Below, piece by piece: positions 6,653 to 29,415 of a DNA stretch of 64,000 nucleotides. The stretch's first letter is position 1. The number at the start of each line of letters is the position of its first letter. Origin of the DNA: Escherichia coli (GTDB lineage Bacteria; Pseudomonadota; Gammaproteobacteria; Enterobacterales; Enterobacteriaceae); the NCBI RefSeq assembly GCF_024298765.1, contig NZ_CP101210.1, one strand, 5' to 3'. The notes under the pieces are model-generated. The model had not been told where the DNA came from and did not search any database. It saw nothing but the letters and a program-made list of their open reading frames with translations. Position numbers and translations under genes: made by a program.

Positions 6653-6912
6653 TTTTCCGCACTGACATAAACTGACAAATATTTAATCCCCCTTTCATTT
6701 AGCGTGAAAAATTGAATGAGATTATTCCTGCTTCAACAGCACTCACCAGACATCTCTGATGCTGAACCCACTAAACTTATGAAGATTCTTTCATTATTAA
6801 TTCAAAATTATTGAAATAAAAATAAATATCATTCAAATTGTTATTTTTGTGTTGCAATTCATTCTCCGACACGCCATTTTCTTTCTCTCGCAAAGTCGTT
6901 TTGGATGCACTT

Positions 6913-7479
6913 ATGTCATTCACAAATACCCCTGAACGCTATGGTGTTATATCTGCGGCCTTCCATTGGCTAAGCGCAATTATTGTCTACGGCATGTTTG
7001 CTTTAGGTCTGTGGATGGTCACGCTCAGTTATTACGATGGCTGGTATCACCAGGCACCCGAACTGCATAAAAGCATCGGTATTTTGTTAATGATGGGGCT
7101 GGTTATTCGCGTTCTGTGGCGCGTCATATCTCCACCGCCGGGTCCGCTGCAGAGTTATTCGCCCATGACTCGTCTTGGCGCAAAGGCTGGACATCTCGCA
7201 TTGTACTTATTGCTGTTCGCCATCGGCATCAGCGGCTATCTGATCTCAACTGCCGATGGTAAACCGATCAGCGTTTTTGGCTGGTTTGACGTCCCCGCGA
7301 CCCTCGCCGACGCTGGCGCACAGGCTGACTTTGCCGGTGCCCTGCATTTTTGGCTCGCGTGGAGCGTCGTAGTACTGTCCGTTATGCACGGATTTATGGC
7401 CCTGAAGCATCATTTCATCGATAAAGACGACACTCTGAAGCGCATGCTGGGAAAGTCGTCATCTGACTATGGAGTATAA
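6913..7479 (+). CDS. yceJ: Cytochrome b561 homologue YceJ (188 aa)
   Basis: The internal ATG of ORF 6838..7479 gives MSFTNTPERYGVISAAFHWLSAIIVYGMF... The protein has four TM segments with conserved His residues. Confidence 0.9.
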   Translation: MSFTNTPERYGVISAAFHWLSAIIVYGMFALGLWMVTLSYYDGWYHQAPELHKSIGILLMMGLVIRVLWRVISPPPGPLQSYSPMTRLGAKAGHLALYLLLFAIGISGYLISTADGKPISVFGWFDVPATLADAGAQADFAGALHFWLAWSVVVLSVMHGFMALKHHFIDKDDTLKRMLGKSSSDYGV

Positions 7480-10297: not shown

Positions 10298-10468
10298 ATC
10301 TCCCATGCCGGATGCTTCAGAAGGGTATCCGGCATTACCACAGCAAATCCCCCTGATTTAGCGATAAAAGCTCTCTGGATTGCGCCCCCTGGAAGTCGGG
10401 CGCATAATTAGTGTGCTTATCTTTTCTTCTTATGTTCACCGCGCCTGGCGCACCAACAGCGGATTGCT

Positions 10469-10650
10469 ATGTCACCCTGTGAAAATGACACCCCTATAAA
10501 CTGGAAACGAAACCTGATCGTCGCCTGGCTAGGCTGTTTTCTTACCGGTGCCGCCTTCAGCCTGGTAATGCCCTTCTTACCCCTCTACGTTGAGCAGCTT
10601 GGCGTTACCGGCCACTCCGCCCTGAATATGTGGTCCGGTATTGTCTTCAG
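10469..10650 (+). pseudogene. mdtG: mdtG 5' fragment (codons 1 to about 61) cut by an insertion
   Basis: [62 protein letters not shown] is the MdtG N-terminus. The frame then reads MGP* in foreign sequence, with the stop at 10664-10666. Confidence 0.93.
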
Positions 10651-10672
10651 TATAATGGGTCCCTAAACACAT
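10628..10672. other. attL junction of the mdtG-borne element
   Basis: The sequence reads host ...ggtattgtcttc, then AG, then element tataatgggtccctaaacac. The arm TCCCTAAACAC (10660-10670) is the inverted partner of GTGTATTTAGGGA at 14933-14945. Confidence 0.75.
10651..10656 (+). promoter_or_regulatory. Consensus -10 hexamer TATAAT at the extreme left end of the element, upstream of the recombinase gene
   Basis: TATAAT lies 34 nt upstream of the ATG at 10690. No good -35 is visible in either the integrated or the reconstructed circular context. Confidence 0.3.
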
Positions 10673-10689
10673 CATTTTAGGTATTGAAT

Positions 10690-12219
10690 ATGAGACGGGC
10701 AATCAGCTACATCAGATTTTCAAGTGAACGACAACTAAAAGGGGACTCTGTACGCAGACAATCTAAGCTGGTCACTGACTGGCTTGATAAGAACCCTGAG
10801 TTTTACTTGGATTCATCCTTGAGCTTTAAAGATTTGGGGAAAAGTGCTTTTAGTGGTAAGCACTTGAAAGGTGGCTTAGGTGACTTTTTAACCGCTATCG
10901 AGAAAGGGCTTGTTAAAGCTGGTGATACACTACTAATCGAGAGTTTAGACCGTCTCTCACGTCAGGATATTGATATTGCTTCTGAGCTATTACGTCGTAT
11001 CTTAAGGGCTGGTGTAGATATAGTCACACTGAGCGATGGTGAACATTACACACGAGAAAGTTTAAAAGACCCGTTATCCCTGATTAAAAGCATTCTGATA
11101 ATGCAGCGGGCGCATGAGGAAAGTCTGAGGAAGTCTGAGCGTGTCCAAGCTGCATGGAACCGTAAAAAAGAACTCATCTCCGAAGGTATCAAGGTATCTA
11201 GGCGTTGTCCTGCATGGTTAAGGCTGAATGATGACCGTCGAACATTCACTATCATCCCCGATAAAGTGGAAGTTGTTAAACGAGCATTTGACCTGAGATT
11301 ACAGGGTTTAAGCTTTTGGGCTATCACCAGAACTTTAAACGATGAAGGCCACTTGTCATTGAATCAATACACACCTAAACAAAAGGGATGGTCTGATACT
11401 GCTGTAAAGAAACTACTCAGAAATCGTGCTGTGATTGGATGTTTCACACCTGCTGGACGTGAAGAAGTTCAGGGTTACTACCCCGCAATAATCAGTGAGT
11501 CACTATTCTATCGAGTACAGCAACTGAACACAGGGCAATATGGTAGGGCTTCTGTATCAAGTAATCCGCTATCAGTCAACTTGTTCAGGGGTATCATCAA
11601 ATGTTCTGAGTGTGGGGCTACTATTGTTCTTGGTGGATATGCCTTAAAACGTTTTGGGATGTACAGATGCCCTAATCGTTCAGCTAACAGGTGTAGTGCA
11701 AAGGCTATCAGTCGTAAGCAAACGGATACAACTATCCTTTACATGCTCGCATTATGCGACCGTTTTGAAACTGAAAATACTGACACTATTGATAGCCTTA
11801 AATTACAGCGTGAAGATTTGCAGCGTAAAATCTCAAAAATGGCAGAACTCGCTATTGAACTCGATGACATGACAATTATCACAGAGAAATTACGTGATAT
11901 GAAGAATGCGCTATCAAAACTCAATCATGATATCGAAGAGGAAACAAAGCGGATAAAGGCCATCACAACTGGAAGCCTCAAAGATATTGACAGGACAACA
12001 AAGGAAGGGATGATAGAGACACAGCTACTTATCAAGGGCGTACTCAAAGAAATAGTTATAGATGCCGCTAAACGTCGCTGTAAAGTGACTTTTCACAACG
12101 GTAAGGTAATTGACCTACCTATAACAGAAAACCCCTCAGAGGACGTTACAGAGGCCATACAGTCGCTTTCTGAAGTCACTGAGAGGGGTTTAATAGATGT
12201 TGATGTAGTAGCGATTTAG
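10690..12219 (+). CDS. Large serine recombinase (integrase), 509 aa from the ATG
   Basis: ORF track 10684..12219. The N-terminal catalytic domain has AISYIRFSSERQ and ESLDRLSRQ motifs. It is followed by a recombinase domain, a Cys4 zinc ribbon (CSECG...CPNRSANRC) and a long coiled coil (LKLQREDLQRKISKMAELAIELDD...). Confidence 0.9.
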   Translation: MRRAISYIRFSSERQLKGDSVRRQSKLVTDWLDKNPEFYLDSSLSFKDLGKSAFSGKHLKGGLGDFLTAIEKGLVKAGDTLLIESLDRLSRQDIDIASELLRRILRAGVDIVTLSDGEHYTRESLKDPLSLIKSILIMQRAHEESLRKSERVQAAWNRKKELISEGIKVSRRCPAWLRLNDDRRTFTIIPDKVEVVKRAFDLRLQGLSFWAITRTLNDEGHLSLNQYTPKQKGWSDTAVKKLLRNRAVIGCFTPAGREEVQGYYPAIISESLFYRVQQLNTGQYGRASVSSNPLSVNLFRGIIKCSECGATIVLGGYALKRFGMYRCPNRSANRCSAKAISRKQTDTTILYMLALCDRFETENTDTIDSLKLQREDLQRKISKMAELAIELDDMTIITEKLRDMKNALSKLNHDIEEETKRIKAITTGSLKDIDRTTKEGMIETQLLIKGVLKEIVIDAAKRRCKVTFHNGKVIDLPITENPSEDVTEAIQSLSEVTERGLIDVDVVAI

Positions 12220-12263
12220 TATCTCTTATTAGGATTCACTGAGTACTTTTTAAGCTTTGAAGC

Positions 12264-12307
12264 TACCCGACCAGCGTTACTGTTAGCATTGGTGAGGTTG
12301 GTTTTTT
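12264..12307 (+). terminator. Candidate intrinsic terminator after the large recombinase gene
   Basis: The imperfect stem ACCCGACCA...TGGTGAGGT (alternatively CCGACC/GGTTGG with a G-U pair) is followed by TTTTTT. Confidence 0.45.
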
Positions 12308-12482
12308 CAGCTTCTTCACAAAAAAGCTTCAGAGGTCTTCTTAACCATCCGCTAAGCAGGAGAGAGGGTGGTACATGAGAAAGAACCCTCACTTCTAAAA
12401 AGATTTTTTAGCTATTTTGCTTAAAACCATATCAAAAGATACATTTTATTGATTCAGGTCAAAGACAAAAGCATTGACAAAA

Positions 12483-12580
12483 TGGTAAAATTGTTCACAT
12501 GACCTTACTTAACAGACTTTTTAAGAGCTTTTGAGAAGCTTGTTGAACAGACACTCTTTCTGGAGTGTTGTCTTTTACTT
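12483..12580 (+). ncRNA. Hypothetical sRNA-like transcription unit of about 80 nt (promoter to terminator)
   Basis: An extended -10 TGGTAAAAT (12483-12491) is followed by the terminator-like hairpin ACAgACACTC tttctg GAGTGTTGT and CTTTTACTT (12547-12580). This is a prediction from sequence only. Confidence 0.2.
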
Positions 12581-12934
12581 AAGAGGTTTGTTTAGATAAC
12601 TCTCAAGGCATCTCTTAAGAATCACTGTTAAGGTGATACTCTCCCTTCGGGTTATATCGTATCTCTTCTCCCGTTAGACAGTTTTTCCTAGCAACTTCAT
12701 AGTTATCTGTCAAGTGCCTTTGAAGATTCCATCAAGACCTCTGAATCTGACCTGATATAGATGCTGTGAAGGCATATTCTCTAGGTCTGTGTAGCTTACT
12801 TAGTGGGAAGAGAGGGATATAGTGACCATAGGGGAACCCCTCCTGTTAAAAAGACTACTTAGAAGTCTGAGACTTTAGTAAAATCTGTGAATATAGCTTC
12901 TCAGACGCTCTGTAACGCATTCTAAGCGATTTTA

Positions 12935-12953
12935 CCACCTTATTTTAAGGTGG
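12935..12953. other. Perfect 7-bp hairpin CCACCTT-atttt-AAGGTGG
   Basis: Read directly from the sequence. It is immediately followed by the second copy of GGGTGGTACAT (12952-12962). Confidence 0.6.
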
Positions 12954-13206
12954 GTGGTACATCCCTATAGGTTACCCTAAAAATGGGGTTAAAACTCGCT
13001 ACAGAGCTTTCTATGAGGCTTGGTAGAGTTGCATAAATTTTACACAACACTTATTCAGCTTCTAAATTTTTTTATAAAAAATCGTAGTAACCCCTCTACA
13101 TTCCCCTTCACCGATAATCTTCAAAAATATCTATCACAGGTCTATACCTGCTAAGTACCCGTCACTACGCCTAAGTGGTCCCCTTTGCAAAATTTTAAAA
13201 TATCTA

Positions 13207-13233
13207 TTGACTTTTTATGTGAACTGTTATAAA
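13207..13233 (+). promoter_or_regulatory. Candidate sigma-70 promoter reading toward the small recombinase
   Basis: TTGACT (13207-13212), a 15-nt spacer, and the extended -10 TGtTATAAA (13225-13233). Confidence 0.4.
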
Positions 13234-13303
13234 GACCGCTCCATCTCTTAGGCATACCGTTATAGCATACTAAAAAGGTATAGCTAACCCCCTGTAAAAA
13301 CCA

Positions 13304-13345
13304 TACCGATTAGCCTTGTAAAACACTTTATCGGTACATTATACT
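13304..13345 (+). promoter_or_regulatory. Inverted repeat overlapping the proximal promoter of the small recombinase (res-like or operator candidate)
   Basis: TACCGAT (13304-13310) and ATCGGTA (13330-13336) are separated by 19 nt. They overlap TTGTAA (13316-13321), an 18-nt spacer and TATACT (13340-13345). A related ATACC-N18-GGTAT lies at 13254-13281. Confidence 0.4.
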
Positions 13346-13380
13346 CAACTCATCAAATGAGTAAGGCAAATGAGTATATT

Positions 13381-13926
13381 ATGGCTAACATTGGTTATAT
13401 CCGAGTTTCATCAATCCAGCAGATTACAGACCGTCAACTTGAAGGGGTCGTACTGGATAAGATATTTACTGATAAAGCATCTGGGAAGAATACAGACCGT
13501 CCACAACTAAAGGCTATGCTCGATTATGTTCGTGAAGGTGATGTTATCCATGTACACGACTTGTCACGTTTAGGGCGCTCTACCGTGGATGTATTAACGC
13601 TGGTGGATAAACTTTCACAGAAAGGTATCAAGGTTCACTTTCACAAAGAAGGTCTGATAACTGGTGACGATAACCCCACGTCTAAGATGATTCTCACAAT
13701 CTTTTCAGCAGTGGCTGAAGCTGAACGTAAAATGATGCTTGAGCGTCAACGAGAAGGCTATGAAGCTGCTAAAGCTGCTGGTCGTGTAGTTGGAAGGGGT
13801 AACGGTAAAGCGGTTGACAGAGAAGGTATTAAAGCTGCTCTTGCTGCTGGTGGTTCAATCGCTAAAGTAGCCGCTCAATTCAACGTTGCCAAGTCAACTG
13901 TACAGCGTATTAAAGCTGAAGATTAA
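13381..13926 (+). CDS. Small serine recombinase of the resolvase/invertase family (181 aa; alternative start at 13357 gives 189 aa)
   Basis: MANIGYIRVSSIQQ carries the catalytic Ser. The protein also has DLSRLGRS and AERKMMLERQREG motifs and a C-terminal HTH (SIAKVAAQFNVAKSTVQRI). The layout matches gamma-delta/Tn3 resolvase and Hin/Gin. Confidence 0.9.
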   Translation: MANIGYIRVSSIQQITDRQLEGVVLDKIFTDKASGKNTDRPQLKAMLDYVREGDVIHVHDLSRLGRSTVDVLTLVDKLSQKGIKVHFHKEGLITGDDNPTSKMILTIFSAVAEAERKMMLERQREGYEAAKAAGRVVGRGNGKAVDREGIKAALAAGGSIAKVAAQFNVAKSTVQRIKAED

Positions 13927-13939
13927 GTCAGGAAATACA

Positions 13940-14623
13940 TTAGATTTTTCTTCCAAATAAACTTGGGAGATTCTTACGGTTTCTTGCTTGCATCATTATT
14001 TCTGGGCTAACAAGTTTTTTTAATTCGCTTCTGTACTCATCAATAGAACACTCATCCGCAACAAGTTTTGAAATCAGGTCTTCAATAGACATAACATCTT
14101 GTTGCAGGAAATCAAGTTCACGAGACAAGTGCTTTTTTTGATTCTCTAACTTTCCTATCTCAGCATTTAAGTTATCTACATCTGTCGCCAATTTCTCTGC
14201 CTGAGATTTCAAATTACTTGTATCTTCTTTTTCTCTTTCGATAAGGTTTTTTTGTTTCTCAATCTTCAACTTTGACGTCAGTCTAGCTGACTCTTCAAGA
14301 TTTTCAGCTTCTACTTTTTGTCTTGCTCGCCATGCGGTTGCCTTGATTTGAAGTAGTGTTACAAGGTTGCTGAAGTAAGGGAAAAAGGTCGCCAAAATGA
14401 ACCCTAGCCCTACGGGATAGCATAATGTTTTTAGATAGAAGTCTTCCGTCGATGTGATTTGTTGAATACGAGTAACAACCGAAGCCTCACTAAGACACAT
14501 GATAGCAATGCTTTTCCAGTTAAATCCCACCCATGACAAAATGATGTAGCCCCATAAAGGGTTAGCTACTCGTTCCTTCAACGCCTGCTTAACTGATTCC
14601 GTGATACTTTCTTCACTACTCAC
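13940..14623 (-). CDS. Hypothetical protein with two TM segments and a coiled coil (227 aa)
   Basis: The GTG start is preceded by GGAG 8 nt upstream. Hydrophobic segments are PLWGYIILSWVGFNWKSIAIMCL and LCYPVGLGFILATFFPYFSNLVTLL. A charged heptad-like region of about 110 aa follows (EAENLEESARLTSKLKIEKQKNLIEREKED...). I do not recognise the family. Confidence 0.7.
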   Translation of the reverse strand: MSSEESITESVKQALKERVANPLWGYIILSWVGFNWKSIAIMCLSEASVVTRIQQITSTEDFYLKTLCYPVGLGFILATFFPYFSNLVTLLQIKATAWRARQKVEAENLEESARLTSKLKIEKQKNLIEREKEDTSNLKSQAEKLATDVDNLNAEIGKLENQKKHLSRELDFLQQDVMSIEDLISKLVADECSIDEYRSELKKLVSPEIMMQARNRKNLPSLFGRKI

Positions 14624-14893
14624 AATTACTGCTCCATAGAAAACTCTGGTTTGAGAAATTTTAATGCGAATCCAATCAGTTAGATAGACCTGTAAATAGC
14701 AATTTTATAGAAGTCGAGAGAGGGATGACTAACACCCTGCATAGTTTCCTGAAAAGAGACTTCGCATATTATCTATATATTTCAATAAGTTATGCTAAAA
14801 AGGAACTATACCAATACTGCATAGATTCTGCGTAAAACTGCTTGGATACTTGGAAATCCACCATTAAATTGCATAGTCATTCACCTGATAAAG

Positions 14894-14908
14894 CCTGTTA
14901 TTAACAGG
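14894..14908. other. Perfect 15-bp palindrome CCTGTTATTAACAGG near the right end of the element
   Basis: Read directly from the sequence. It is nested within TCACCTG (14881-14887) and CAGGTGA (14905-14911). Confidence 0.6.
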
Positions 14909-14932
14909 TGATAGGATTCGGATGTTCTCATA

Positions 14933-14980
14933 GTGTATTTAGGGAATTAATATCAGCATTACATTTTTATTTTCGGCCAT
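14933..14980. other. attR junction of the mdtG-borne element
   Basis: The sequence reads element GTGTATTTAGGGAATTAATATC, then AG, then host cattacatttttattttcggcc, which resumes MdtG as (S)[15 protein letters not shown]. Confidence 0.75.
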
Positions 14981-16001
14981 CGCCTCACCGTTTTGGGGTG
15001 GACTCGCCGACCGTAAAGGCCGAAAACTCATGCTATTACGCTCTGCCCTCGGCATGGGCATCGTGATGGTGTTGATGGGACTGGCACAAAATATCTGGCA
15101 GTTTTTGATCCTGCGGGCGCTTCTTGGGTTACTTGGCGGATTTGTCCCCAACGCTAATGCTCTTATCGCCACACAAGTACCGCGTAATAAAAGCGGCTGG
15201 GCGCTGGGTACGCTCTCCACAGGCGGCGTTAGTGGTGCGTTGCTCGGCCCAATGGCTGGCGGCCTGCTCGCCGATAGCTACGGCTTACGTCCGGTATTCT
15301 TTATTACCGCCAGTGTGCTCATACTCTGCTTTTTCGTCACCCTGTTCTGCATCAGAGAAAAATTCCAGCCGGTCAGCAAAAAAGAGATGCTGCACATGCG
15401 GGAAGTGGTGACATCACTTAAAAACCCGAAACTGGTACTCAGCCTGTTTGTCACCACGTTAATCATCCAGGTGGCGACAGGCTCAATTGCCCCCATTCTG
15501 ACGCTGTATGTCCGCGAACTGGCGGGTAACGTCAGTAACGTCGCCTTTATCAGTGGCATGATCGCCTCGGTGCCAGGCGTGGCGGCTCTGCTAAGCGCAC
15601 CACGACTCGGCAAACTTGGCGATCGAATCGGACCCGAAAAGATCCTGATTACAGCGCTGATCTTTTCTGTACTGCTGTTGATCCCAATGTCTTACGTTCA
15701 GACGCCATTGCAACTTGGGATTTTACGTTTTTTGCTCGGTGCCGCCGATGGTGCACTACTCCCCGCCGTACAGACACTGTTGGTTTACAACTCGAGCAAC
15801 CAGATCGCCGGGCGTATCTTCAGCTATAACCAATCGTTTCGTGATATTGGCAACGTTACCGGACCATTGATGGGAGCAGCGATTTCAGCGAACTACGGTT
15901 TCAGAGCGGTATTTCTCGTCACCGCTGGCGTCGTGTTATTCAACGCAGTCTATTCATGGAACAGTCTACGTCGTCGTCGAATACCCCAGGTATCGAACTG
16001 A
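14957..16001 (+). pseudogene. mdtG: mdtG 3' fragment (codon 61 to the stop)
   Basis: The frame reads [38 protein letters not shown]... and runs to the stop at 16001. ORF-track entry 15030..16001 is its internal-Met portion. Confidence 0.93.
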
Positions 16002-25860: not shown

Positions 25861-26316
25861 TTAACGTTGTGTCACGCGAATAGCCATTTGCGACTGTCTC
25901 TGCACTACAATTGCCGTTTTTTGAGTACCATACTGTGTAATATTTGCTTTATTACCCGAACCTTTCTGGATAATCATCGCAGTATTACCATAAGCACCTT
26001 GCGAAATACTGGCATCGTTGGCACTGCCCGCCTGATCAATATATGCAAGGTTATAATCTCCTGTCTGGTCAATCTTTGCCCGGTTGCTACTACCTTCTTG
26101 CGCAACAACCGCCAAAAGTTTTGAGCCTCCCTGCCGTAACTGAGCACTATTATTAGTCCCAGCTTGACCAATTATGGCTGCCTGATTAAATGAAGACTTA
26201 CTCAATTCATTTACCGCGAAGTTATATTCTGAATTAGCTAAATCATAACCTGCTGCGGCTGCAATCCCAGGCGCACCCAGTATTGTTAACATCATAAATA
26301 ACAATTTGTTTTTCAT
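25861..26316 (-). CDS. csgB: Minor curlin / nucleator CsgB (151 aa)
   Basis: The internal ATG of ORF 25861..26343 gives MKNKLLFMMLTILGAPGIAAA..., followed by curlin repeats. Confidence 0.95.
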   Translation of the reverse strand: MKNKLLFMMLTILGAPGIAAAAGYDLANSEYNFAVNELSKSSFNQAAIIGQAGTNNSAQLRQGGSKLLAVVAQEGSSNRAKIDQTGDYNLAYIDQAGSANDASISQGAYGNTAMIIQKGSGNKANITQYGTQKTAIVVQRQSQMAIRVTQR

Positions 26317-27069
26317 GTTGTCACCCTGGACCTGGTCGTACATTTAAGAAATTAAATCATTTCAACTTGGTTGTTAACGCAACCTGTATTTTGTTAACGC
26401 TGCGTTACGATGGAAAGTATGTCTGCGGAAATATTTTTAATAACTCACCCGCGCGTTGTATTTTTCTTTTTTTGTTCATACCAAAGTATTAAAACTCACG
26501 TAAATACGCTGTTATCTACGCAAAAAATATTTTGTTTTCTTTTAAATCTCCGTTTTCCGCTATCAAAAATCACCAGACAATCATTCTTCTTGCCCGTCGC
26601 TGATTGCTGCGATATGTCTTGCGCACAAGCCGTGACAAACCTCGTCTTTTTGCAGTAAAAAATTGTCCACGGAGGTGTGGAGAAAAAACAAGAACGTTTT
26701 ACATGACGAAAGGACTACACCGAAATATTTTTTATATGCATTATTAGTAAGTTAGCACCATTTGTATGATTTTTTAAAATTGTGCAATAAAAACCAAATG
26801 TACAACTTTTCTATCATTTCTAAACTTAATAAAACCTTAAGATTAACATTTTAATATAACGAGTTACATTTAGTTACATGTTTAACACTTGATTTAAGAT
26901 TTGTAATGGCTAGATTGAAATCAGATGTAATCCATTAGTTTTATATTTTACCCATTTAGGGCTGATTTATTACTACACACAGCAGTGCAACATCTGTCAG
27001 TACTTCTGGTGCTTCTATTTTAGAGGCAGCTGTCAGGTGTGCGATCAATAAAAAAAGCGGGGTTTCATC
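26317..27069. promoter_or_regulatory. Divergent csgBAC/csgDEFG control region (753 bp, AT-rich)
   Basis: This long AT-rich intergenic region lies between csgB and csgD. From the literature it holds the csgD and csgB promoters and many regulator sites. I did not map individual sites. Confidence 0.8.
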
Positions 27070-27720
<651 letters not shown>

Positions 27721-28581: not shown

Positions 28582-29415
28582 ATGCAGCGCTTATTTCTTT
28601 TGGTTGCCGTCATGTTACTGAGCGGATGCTTAACCGCCCCGCCTAAAGAAGCCGCCAGACCGACATTAATGCCTCGTGCTCAGAGCTACAAAGATTTGAC
28701 CCATCTGCCAGCGCCGACGGGTAAGATCTTTGTTTCGGTATACAACATTCAGGACGAAACCGGGCAATTTAAACCCTACCCGGCAAGTAACTTCTCCACT
28801 GCTGTTCCGCAAAGCGCCACGGCAATGCTGGTCACGGCATTGAAAGATTCTCGCTGGTTTATACCGCTGGAGCGCCAAGGCTTACAAAACCTGCTTAACG
28901 AGCGCAAGATTATTCGTGCGGCACAAGAAAACGGCACGGTTGCCATTAATAACCGAATCCCGCTGCAATCTTTAACGGCGGCAAATATCATGGTTGAAGG
29001 TTCAATTATCGGTTATGAAAGCAACGTTAAATCGGGCGGGGTTGGGGCAAGATATTTTGGGATCGGTGCAGACACGCAATACCAGCTTGATCAGATTGCC
29101 GTGAACCTGCGCGTCGTCAATGTGAGTACCGGCGAGATCCTCTCCTCGGTGAACACCAGTAAGACGATACTTTCCTATGAAGTTCAGGCGGGGGTCTTCC
29201 GCTTTATTGACTACCAGCGCTTGCTGGAAGGGGAAGTAGGTTACACCTCGAACGAACCCGTTATGCTGTGCCTGATGTCGGCTATCGAAACAGGCGTCAT
29301 TTTCCTGATTAATGATGGTATCGACCGCGGTCTTTGGGATTTGCAAAATAAAGCAGAACGGCAGAATGACATTCTGGTGAAATACCGCCATATGTCGGTT
29401 CCACCGGAATCCTGA
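28582..29415 (+). CDS. csgG: Curli outer-membrane secretion channel lipoprotein CsgG
   Basis: 277-aa ORF starting MQRLFLLVAVMLLSGC, which contains a lipobox. Confidence 0.95.
   Translation: MQRLFLLVAVMLLSGCLTAPPKEAARPTLMPRAQSYKDLTHLPAPTGKIFVSVYNIQDETGQFKPYPASNFSTAVPQSATAMLVTALKDSRWFIPLERQGLQNLLNERKIIRAAQENGTVAINNRIPLQSLTAANIMVEGSIIGYESNVKSGGVGARYFGIGADTQYQLDQIAVNLRVVNVSTGEILSSVNTSKTILSYEVQAGVFRFIDYQRLLEGEVGYTSNEPVMLCLMSAIETGVIFLINDGIDRGLWDLQNKAERQNDILVKYRHMSVPPES

Follow-up and report, generated by a model that had tools for sequence, protein, structure and literature searches.

A 4.3-kb insert in Escherichia coli mdtG as a miniature, deletion-derived member of a candidate satellite family of Felix O1-like phages

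Islands of phage-satellite type that are integrated by a large serine recombinase (LSR) are already known as a kind. Among the described satellites, the PLE islands have a specific gene set comprising RepA, TcaP, NixI, CapR and others, and the P4-like, PICI and cfPICI elements carry a tyrosine integrase, AlpA, a primase-replicase and genes that either redirect capsids or encode them. For the phage-inducible chromosomal minimalist islands (PICMI) of the Vibrionaceae, packaging as a concatemer is reported (PMC10803314). The present analysis concerns a 4,306-bp insert that splits the efflux gene mdtG in a 64,000-nucleotide stretch of Escherichia coli DNA (contig NZ_CP101210.1; this whole stretch is called the window, and coordinates refer to it unless another record is named). 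We lean towards regarding the insert as a miniaturised member of a family of LSR-integrated islands of 11–12 kb, a family absent from the descriptions found, which would live as satellites or dedicated parasites of virulent Felix O1-like myoviruses (Ounavirinae).

The insert splits mdtG at 10650/10651 and 14956/14957 when one copy of the duplicated TCAG core is counted with it. The 5' fragment (10469..10650, plus strand, 61 codons, with the frame starting at 10469) runs past 10650 into a foreign stop codon at 10664-10666, and the 3' fragment (14957..16001, plus strand) resumes the frame at 14957 and closes it at 16001. Joined together, 10469-10650 and 14957-16001 give 1,227 nt and an unbroken MdtG of 408 codons. 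A 600-nt query spanning the joined flanks is 100% identical to the intact mdtG of strain 2014C-3338 and finds the gene uninterrupted in 5,403 of the 5,426 complete E. coli genomes, which bears out a preliminary description of the locus in its claims of a clean insertion without loss of host sequence and of an empty site in other E. coli. The inactivation of MdtG claimed there holds as well; it is a side effect of the insertion, and in practical terms carriers of the insert are without a functional MdtG pump. Likewise, the G+C content of the insert, estimated by eye at 35–40%, was computed as 39.8%, the 5-kb flanks having 48.9% and 53.0%.

One TCAG copy, read from the sequence at 10647..10650, marks attL and forms the same junction in the full-length elements of strains A1 and FDAARGOS_944, and the other copy lies at 14953-14956; the crossover dinucleotide should fall within this core. 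The left end of the element (10651..10689), with the dyad arm TCCCTAAACAC at 10660-10670, corresponds to the right arm of attP, and its right end (14916..14956), with GTGTATTTAGGGA at 14933-14945, corresponds to the left arm. In the reconstructed attP an imperfect dyad (GTGTATTTAGGGA ... TCCCTAAACAC) surrounds the core, and the predicted junction of the excised form is given by GGGAATTAATATCAG and TATAATGGGTCCC. The short identical core at both ends, the precise insertion and the intact attB in empty-site genomes are the features expected of integration by an LSR. This enzyme (509 aa; 10690..12219, plus strand), specific for the mdtG attB, contains the Pfam domains Resolvase (PF00239), Recombinase (PF07508) and Zn_ribbon_recom (PF13408), matches a PHROG integrase at 3.7e-80 and shows a weak match to the A118 integrase structure. 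In the integrated state its gene would be read from the mdtG promoter.

The complete 4.3-kb insert was found in mdtG in six of the 5,426 genomes, with a partial copy interrupted by an insertion sequence (IS) in two further E166 records, and 542 genomes contain parts of the insert. At the mdtG attB, and with identical junctions, A1 has an 11.6-kb element and FDAARGOS_944 a ~15-kb IS-disrupted one, and the stretch comprising the LSR gene and the mdtG flank is 96.7–98.8% identical at the nucleotide level between the window and these full-length elements. There, the LSR gene is adjoined by genes annotated as ‘phage baseplate protein’ and ‘tape measure protein’. Of the Dit-like baseplate gene, the window retains the ~32 codons at the 3' end (12216..12315, minus strand). 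They encode EAEKTNLTNANSNAGRVASKLKKYSVNPNKRY, which differs from the C-terminus of the Dit-like protein (PF21821) of A1 at one residue, L in the window and V in A1 (EAEKTN(V/L)TNANSNAGRVASKLKKYSVNPNKRY). The remnant ends in a deletion junction with a 10-nt microhomology, TTCAGCTTCT (12306..12315): the window tracks the A1 Dit gene up to this decamer and from there on follows the non-coding region of strain NCTC10444, which carries the same decamer. About 7 kb, reaching from inside the Dit-like gene to the non-coding region and including the tape-measure gene and the small-gene operon, was lost. Since the decamer is common to the Dit 3' end and the non-coding region, the loss is best read as a microhomology-mediated deletion and not as site-specific recombination. 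What the mini form retains is the LSR with its attP, ~1 kb of non-coding DNA peculiar to the family, a Tn3-like resolvase with upstream repeats, and a membrane/coiled-coil protein that is likewise family-specific. The earlier view of the insert as a minimal element of an undescribed type is thus wrong as far as a primary element is meant, given the Dit remnant and the full-length copies at the same site, but it stands in that no description was found in the open-access and bioRxiv literature.

Full-length members of the family share a common layout. An LSR is followed by a Dit-like gene (PF21821), a tape-measure gene (PF20155) and genes for proteins of 71 and 235 aa; then come small genes, among them one for an HNH protein or for a replication-initiator-like HTH_36 protein, optionally with a Dam methylase; and 1–2 kb of non-coding DNA, a small serine recombinase and optional cargo complete the element. 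Besides mdtG, the integration sites are yecE (LR-71-1), tonB/yciI (NCTC10444 and Citrobacter freundii), wrbA/ymdF (02E060 and A7) and lafU/dinB (GB089), and each site is served by an LSR of its own. The slot of the small recombinase is always filled, by three unrelated types of which one stands in the opposite orientation. In a scan of species-representative genomes, the 235-aa marker protein of the family was confined to Escherichia and Citrobacter. Non-coding DNA of the family is widespread: the query 12316-13356 has matches in 540 of the 5,426 E. coli genomes (about 10%), at up to six places per genome and nearly always without annotation, and most of these matches start at 12394 and cover the block 12394-12860. 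Scans with family libraries returned matches to recombinases, tape-measure, Dit-like, HNH, HTH_36 and Dam proteins only. Capsid, terminase and lysis genes were absent from Pfam and PHROG results across the family, and an integrase is present, in line with the general definition of a satellite. Repressor genes were likewise not found in the family, in which the tape-measure and Dit-like genes are the only phage-like ones.

The link to Felix O1-like phages surfaced only through the full-length relatives, k-mers and profiles, the whole insert having no BLASTN match at E<=1e-5 among 50,697 phage records. The Dit-like gene of the GB089 element is 96.6% identical in nucleotides over 529 bp to that of Escherichia typing phage 1 (TP1) and to ~200 other Ounavirinae records. 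The tape-measure gene stretch matches phages more weakly, at about 90% at best over joined pieces, and the two genes are adjacent and in the same order in the phage. All named phage matches belong to the Ounavirinae, bar two records that look mislabelled. At the protein level, the Dit-like and tape-measure products share 76% and 33% of their amino acids, respectively, with those of TP1, and the remaining element proteins have no TP1 match. The G+C content of the element (39.8%) is near the 38.7% of Felixounavirus Pr103Blw. As an aside, GU169904.1, deposited as ‘Staphylococcus phage SA1’ (147 kb), contains Felixounavirus tape-measure, Dit and terminus-region sequences at 88–91% identity and looks like a chimeric or contaminated deposit.

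A second connection lies in the non-coding DNA of the insert. Every family member examined, including those from Citrobacter, has a 160-nt module (13045..13204, plus strand in the window) that resembles a phage terminus and represents a putative packaging (pac) site. Positions 13183-13204 are an exact 22-nt match to TP1 26147-26168, with similarity in the flanks, and a profile built from 11 family members has a unique TP1 match at 26013-26169 (E=2e-14). Within the module, the motif CTGCTAAGTACCC (13148-13160), invariant but for one position in a six-sequence alignment, aligns with phage CTGCTT directly followed by GGTAGCCC. In TP1, the matching site lies within a 1.6-kb gene-free region between convergent gene clusters that is rich in CTTAACA repeats. 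The record of phage ECP2307 has a 592-bp direct terminal repeat (DTR) whose first base corresponds to TP1 26119 (GGTAGCCCTTAACA...), this very base is also where the records of EcSzw_1 and pEP20 have been linearised, and DTR packaging with 581-bp repeats has been published for Pr103Blw (PMC8303462). On these three lines, TP1 26119 is the left end of the DTR and the left genome terminus. Since the homologous phage terminus is a DTR boundary, the module at 13045-13204 is probably a packaging-site mimic. The DTR interior (TP1 26310-26512) also matches the 5' part of a conserved non-coding block of the family, at E=3.7e-7 in A7, 2.3e-4 in Citrobacter and 2.6e-3 in NCTC10444; the window's own sequence, in which the corresponding region is about 12480-12620, gave no significant match to the DTR interior.

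These results overturn three statements of the preliminary description. The 1.14 kb said to be free of any open reading frame (ORF) includes a 58-aa ORF (12216-12392, minus strand) in which the final 32 codons derive from the 3' end of the Dit-like gene; the insert, said to contain nothing phage-like, has this remnant and, at 13045-13204, homology to a Felixounavirus non-coding region; and the supposedly anonymous payload of the non-coding core carries sequences like a phage terminus and like a DTR interior, together with a probable res site. Some further features of the TP1 gene-free region (KP869100; L033 25513-27155) were observed. CTTAACA/CTAACAAG repeats number 9 per 500 bp there as opposed to 48 in the whole 88.5-kb genome, and the region also has a hairpin (GCCC..CCCTTTCGGG..GGGC) built like a covarying hairpin of the islands that is described below. 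The sequence AAAATATCT was considered as a phage-wide promoter motif and dismissed, being confined to the non-coding region at 25.5–26.2 kb of the phage.

The small serine recombinase of the insert is of the resolvase type (181 aa; 13381..13926, plus strand; the ORF opens at 13357, and 13381 is the probable start). It has the Pfam domains Resolvase and HTH_7, and its nearest solved structures are the Tn3 and gamma-delta resolvases (E about 5e-31), followed by the Gin invertase (1e-23). Together with the LSR and a convergent 227-aa ORF, it makes up the gene content given earlier, which the ORF and Pfam analyses confirm. A promoter (TTGACT ... TGtTATAAA) and a putative res site were read from the sequence at 13207..13345 (plus strand). 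Here, half-sites of the form ATACCG(N)TTA / TATCGGTA are repeated upstream of the resolvase gene and overlap the promoter (13250-13345, by eye), in a region that is conserved ahead of type-I resolvases; the res site, with candidate subsites, is assigned by analogy with the organisation of Tn3/gamma-delta. The four uninterrupted complete copies of the insert form single collinear alignments, and the two IS-interrupted ones align in two same-strand pieces, with no inversion in any of them. In view of the Tn3/gamma-delta-like resolvase, the ATACCG half-sites at the promoter and the lack of inversion among complete copies, we infer a res/resolvase system that resolves multimers. A Hin/Gin-type invertible switch, prompted by the opposite orientation of the resolvase in FDAARGOS_944 and A7, was rejected, the reversed genes being unrelated resolvases. 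A related small recombinase also occurs in ~4.5-kb contigs from many assemblies of Salmonella enterica (L019-L024), followed by domainless proteins of 101 and 637 aa; these contigs are without an LSR and could be small plasmids or repeats. At the other end of the insert, a conserved att-proximal module (14679..14909), ending in the palindrome CCTGTTATTAACAGG at 14894-14908, is present in all family members, whatever their LSR, integration site or resolvase type, and would sit upstream of the LSR gene in the excised circle.

The shared Dit-like and tape-measure genes and the terminus homology (E=2e-14) constitute the specific molecular link to a helper that a satellite should have, and the family, the mini form included, may depend on such a helper. 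A possible life cycle can be outlined. Infection by a Felix O1-like helper would lead the LSR, read from the mdtG promoter while the element is integrated, to excise it. The excised element would be amplified, the helper terminase would recognise the terminus mimic, and the DNA would be packaged as concatemers into helper particles. In a new cell, the resolvase could act on the directly repeated res sites to yield circular monomers, which the LSR would insert at TCAG in mdtG. Being without the tail-gene and replication functions, the mini form would have to obtain them from the helper, perhaps also from full-length elements in the same cell. A bolder version of the same model, which we put forward tentatively and consider rather doubtful, sees in the 4.3-kb unit a self-integrating mini-satellite that travels as ~20-mer concatemers in Felix O1-like capsids, is a hyperparasite of its 11-kb parents and ranks among the smallest known, the parents being the first satellites of Ounavirinae.

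Several points weigh against a satellite of Felix O1-like phages. Induction, replication and packaging by such a phage are deduced from sequence comparison, and the mini element is without the replication-initiator-like gene that some full elements carry. A mimic of the right DTR boundary was not detected, and the terminus homology could reflect another shared function, for example an origin or a protein-binding array. The circular attP junction was not found when exact patterns were searched in IMG/VR and JGI metagenome contigs, where patterns from the element's modules had no exact matches either, and the marker of the family was not found in deposited phage records. No description of the family or of an Ounavirinae satellite was found in open-access papers and bioRxiv, the literature to which the search was limited. 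Finally, the distribution of the mini form among strains, set out below, could partly owe to recombination with incoming DNA instead of integration by the LSR.

Much of the evidence would also fit an island that serves mainly in anti-phage defence, in which decoy tape-measure and baseplate-hub proteins, together with terminus-like DNA that titrates DNA-binding factors of the phage, poison the assembly of Felix O1-like phages and the element itself is not packaged; of this equipment, just the decoy DNA and the membrane protein of 227 aa would be left in the mini form. Defence by disturbing the assembly of phage tails is known (PMC11364771), and the tail genes of the family are homologous to those of the phage yet diverged, with a different N-terminus in the tape-measure protein. 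The 227-aa protein (13940..14623, minus strand, convergent), which has the appearance of a coiled coil joined to a transmembrane hairpin, would suit such a role in that its N-terminal two-helix membrane anchor is conserved and its coiled-coil C-terminus is variable and fast-changing. It belongs to no real Pfam or PADLOC family; the PADLOC scan of the three insert proteins returned coiled-coil noise only, and the lack of a convincing PADLOC match counts against a defence island. Its homologues occur only in E. coli and Citrobacter, the single one whose context was checked sits in this element family, and remote matches (21–34% identity) are hypothetical proteins of temperate Klebsiella phages and of one Escherichia phage.

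A relative from another genus is of interest here. Atlantibacter hermannii and metagenome contigs (L025-L028; L027 1528-8864) carry a ~7.4-kb island at yecE that encodes an LSR and, besides five small genes, a small serine recombinase with 72% identity to that of the window, and the slot held in the window by the 227-aa ORF is occupied there by AbiTii and DUF4145 genes. This occupancy suggests that the slot is a position for defence cargo, and it speaks for the defence explanation. That explanation does not account for the diversity of LSRs, for genomes with several copies, for a resolvase slot that is never empty or for the horizontal spread of the mini form, and as the principal function of the island we judge defence to be unlikely. 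It is nevertheless compatible with the satellite model, much of the evidence fitting both, and the two are not mutually exclusive since PLE does both.

Comparison of strains bears on whether the 4.3-kb unit is still mobile or is an inert decay product, a dead remnant that is inherited vertically and otherwise spreads only when chromosomal segments undergo ordinary homologous recombination. The insert is demonstrably a deletion derivative, it is rare (about 8 of 5,426 genomes), and some copies have been hit by IS elements, all of which would suit a dead remnant. Specifically, IS100 lies in the LSR gene of strain E8 (L009 7171-9123) and ISEc52 in the copies of strains 104 and E166, and, being interrupted, some of these copies are now immobile. 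Against an inert remnant, none of the three ORFs is broken, the two att arms are likewise preserved, and the element is 99.7–99.9% identical across backgrounds that are ~1.4% apart. In strain 1428, the element differs from that of the window by 13 single-nucleotide polymorphisms (SNPs; 99.7% identity) and the flanks are 98.5–98.7% identical, with divergence beginning close to both junctions (nearest flank SNPs 160 bp to the left and 124 bp to the right). The human strain E8 has a broadly similar pattern, its nearest flank SNPs lying about 40 bp to the left and 124 bp to the right. Conversely, strain APEC E12049 has flanks 100% identical to those of the window over 12 kb and bears a different element variant, with 15 element SNPs of which 12 are common to strain 1428. 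In all, three or more sequence variants of the element are spread over three or more unrelated chromosomal backgrounds, with no correspondence between variant and flank. Because of this incongruence, the history of the element appears to be uncoupled from that of the chromosome and the 4.3-kb unit apparently still moves between cells, as the earlier portrayal of the insert as a mobile unit would have it; for the same reason, an inert remnant is quite unlikely. A side case is strain NT1F25 (L043), whose insert is 100% identical to that of the window. It is distinct from the window strain despite the identical element, since it has extra IS1 copies near yceI and within the csg operon (6752-7449, 27069-27718 and 28632-29329) and a frameshifted csgD.

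The insert might alternatively be an oriT-only ‘hitcher’ that is moved by conjugative helpers, its non-coding DNA holding an oriT and its phage similarity being incidental. Islands with only an integrase and an oriT are reported to be common in E. coli and relatives (bioRxiv 10.64898/2026.01.13.699239), and the insert combines 1 kb of conserved non-coding DNA with the lack of a relaxase. As had been stated before, no Mob, Rep, Xis or resistance gene was found among its three ORFs by ORF listing and Pfam, and domains of the Mob or Cat kind are absent from all three. When 72,556 plasmids, a set that covers oriTs of the plasmid type, were searched by BLASTN, the resolvase gene alone was matched and none of the non-coding DNA, which is instead homologous to a phage terminus region, and a conjugative hitcher is accordingly very improbable. 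A Tn4451/Tn4453-like mobilisable transposon or an ordinary temperate prophage remnant, to which the pair of large and small serine recombinases and the membership of the LSR in the PHROG ‘integrase’ family might point, is hardly credible, the one for want of Mob/oriT and a cat gene, the other because capsid, terminase, lysis and repressor genes are missing from a family whose phage-like content is limited to tape-measure and Dit-like genes, and because the whole insert has no DNA match in the phage records searched.

The non-coding DNA that the mini form shares with its relatives shows further structure. The conserved block at 12394..12860 (plus strand), the 5' part of which is homologous to the Felixounavirus DTR interior by way of the family members, contains a promoter-like site at 12462-12491 (promoter scan), a terminator-like hairpin after it, and nested inverted repeats (CTTAACAG / CTGTTAAG and AAGAG/CTCTT). 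A hairpin at 12635-12663 (plus strand) has a TTC loop, with a 4-nt CUUC loop in one relative, and its outer stem covaries (GATAC/GTATC, GAACC/GGTTC, GTAAC/GTTAC). Across six sequences, 13 base pairs are changed on both sides as opposed to 1–4 in slid controls, a signal drawn from two or three clades only, and numerous G-U pairs favour the plus strand for the fold. The region 12490-12670 is therefore a candidate for a conserved fold, either of an RNA or of a DNA-level array for protein binding. A long-range closing helix, which would have defined an RNA of ~340 nt, was predicted with six sequences and rejected as unstable with nine, the local helices being kept. Scanning 10400-15200 with Rfam 15 (E<=1) gave one chance-level match, to NRON at 17.9 bits against a threshold of 50, and ARAGORN found neither tRNA nor tmRNA.

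Downstream of the block, a 165-nt motif (12860..13030, plus strand) is a ~70%-identical duplicate of the leader ahead of a 107-aa gene in full-length elements, with folding z-scores of -2.7 (plus strand) and -4.7 (minus strand). Although the duplicate of this structured ~165-nt leader is on the other DNA strand, its orientation with respect to local transcription is unchanged (L010 8851-9014 and 12488-12650), and the operon copies have two alternative pairings (GCTCTCAATCGC with GCGATTGAGGAG) that resemble an attenuator. In some family members, the otherwise ORF-free block has been annotated with a gene for an ‘AP2/ERF family transcription factor’ (ecoli_genomes H98, H99 and H104-H110).

Felix O1-like phages are in wide use against E. 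coli and Salmonella, in biocontrol and therapy, and for typing these bacteria. If the satellite reading holds, satellites of these phages, from a family for which no description was found, reside in about one in ten genomes of E. coli, and the elements would alter phage efficacy and host reach and could move DNA through lysates of virulent phages. Should the mini-satellite model also hold, the parent family would be the first known to us to combine the tape-measure and baseplate-hub genes of its helper with a copied packaging site of the DTR type. The mini form can be viewed as a natural deletion experiment, in which the probable minimal needs for transfer are the LSR with attP, the terminus mimic, the res/resolvase system and the att-proximal module. 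In addition, the pairs of LSR and att sites with defined E. coli attB (mdtG, yecE, tonB-yciI, wrbA-ymdF and lafU-dinB) are of interest for genome engineering.

Among described systems, the clostridial transposons Tn4451/Tn4453 were the first analogue to be proposed for this locus. The analogy extends to the co-occurrence of the two recombinases, an LSR that excises and integrates the element (TnpX in the transposons) and a resolvase-like small serine recombinase (TnpY), but not to mobilisation or resistance, the insert being without TnpZ/Mob, oriT (RSA) and catP. Furthermore, the transposons use many targets, whereas each LSR here has one attB and the family context is phage-related. Tn3/gamma-delta and plasmid multimer-resolution systems share with the insert a similar small recombinase (E about 5e-31) and, as candidates in the insert, repeated half-sites directly upstream that overlap the promoter; unlike Tn3/gamma-delta, the insert has neither a transposase nor terminal inverted repeats, and the role proposed for its resolvase is the resolution of packaged or replicated concatemers. 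With respect to the DTR packaging of Felixounavirus, which is T7-like with a short direct terminal repeat, the element has the surroundings of the left terminus (~105 nt on the upstream and 50 nt on the downstream side), a conserved neighbourhood of the cut site (CTGCT-A/T-A/G-GTA-C/G-CC) and, in family members, a homologue of the repeat interior. It differs in that these pieces are rearranged, that a homologue of the right boundary was not found, and that no terminase is encoded.

As to satellites proper, none of the domains typical of P4-like, PICI and cfPICI elements appeared in the Pfam and PHROG scans, and the integrase is a serine recombinase. The integrase of PICMI, too, is said to differ from the LSR found here. 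The mini form moreover is without a replication gene like that of PICMI and is a deletion derivative, not the normal state of its family. It resembles PICMI in its tiny gene content, its association with virulent phages, the lack of capsid-remodelling genes and, under the model proposed for the 4.3-kb form, packaging as a concatemer (PMC10803314). In the case of PLE, Pfam, PHROG and PADLOC scans, which involved no direct comparison with PLE proteins, revealed no homology to PLE functions. The family is also smaller (11–12 kb as opposed to about 18 kb), resides in Escherichia and Citrobacter hosts, and has tape-measure and baseplate-hub genes of its presumed helper, a copy of the genome terminus and an obligatory small resolvase. 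Nevertheless, PLE and this family are alike in being chromosomal islands that are integrated by an LSR, tied to one lineage of virulent myoviruses and showing evidence of recent exchange of DNA with the phage, and both combine a repeat-bearing non-coding region with the lack of capsid and terminase genes of their own.

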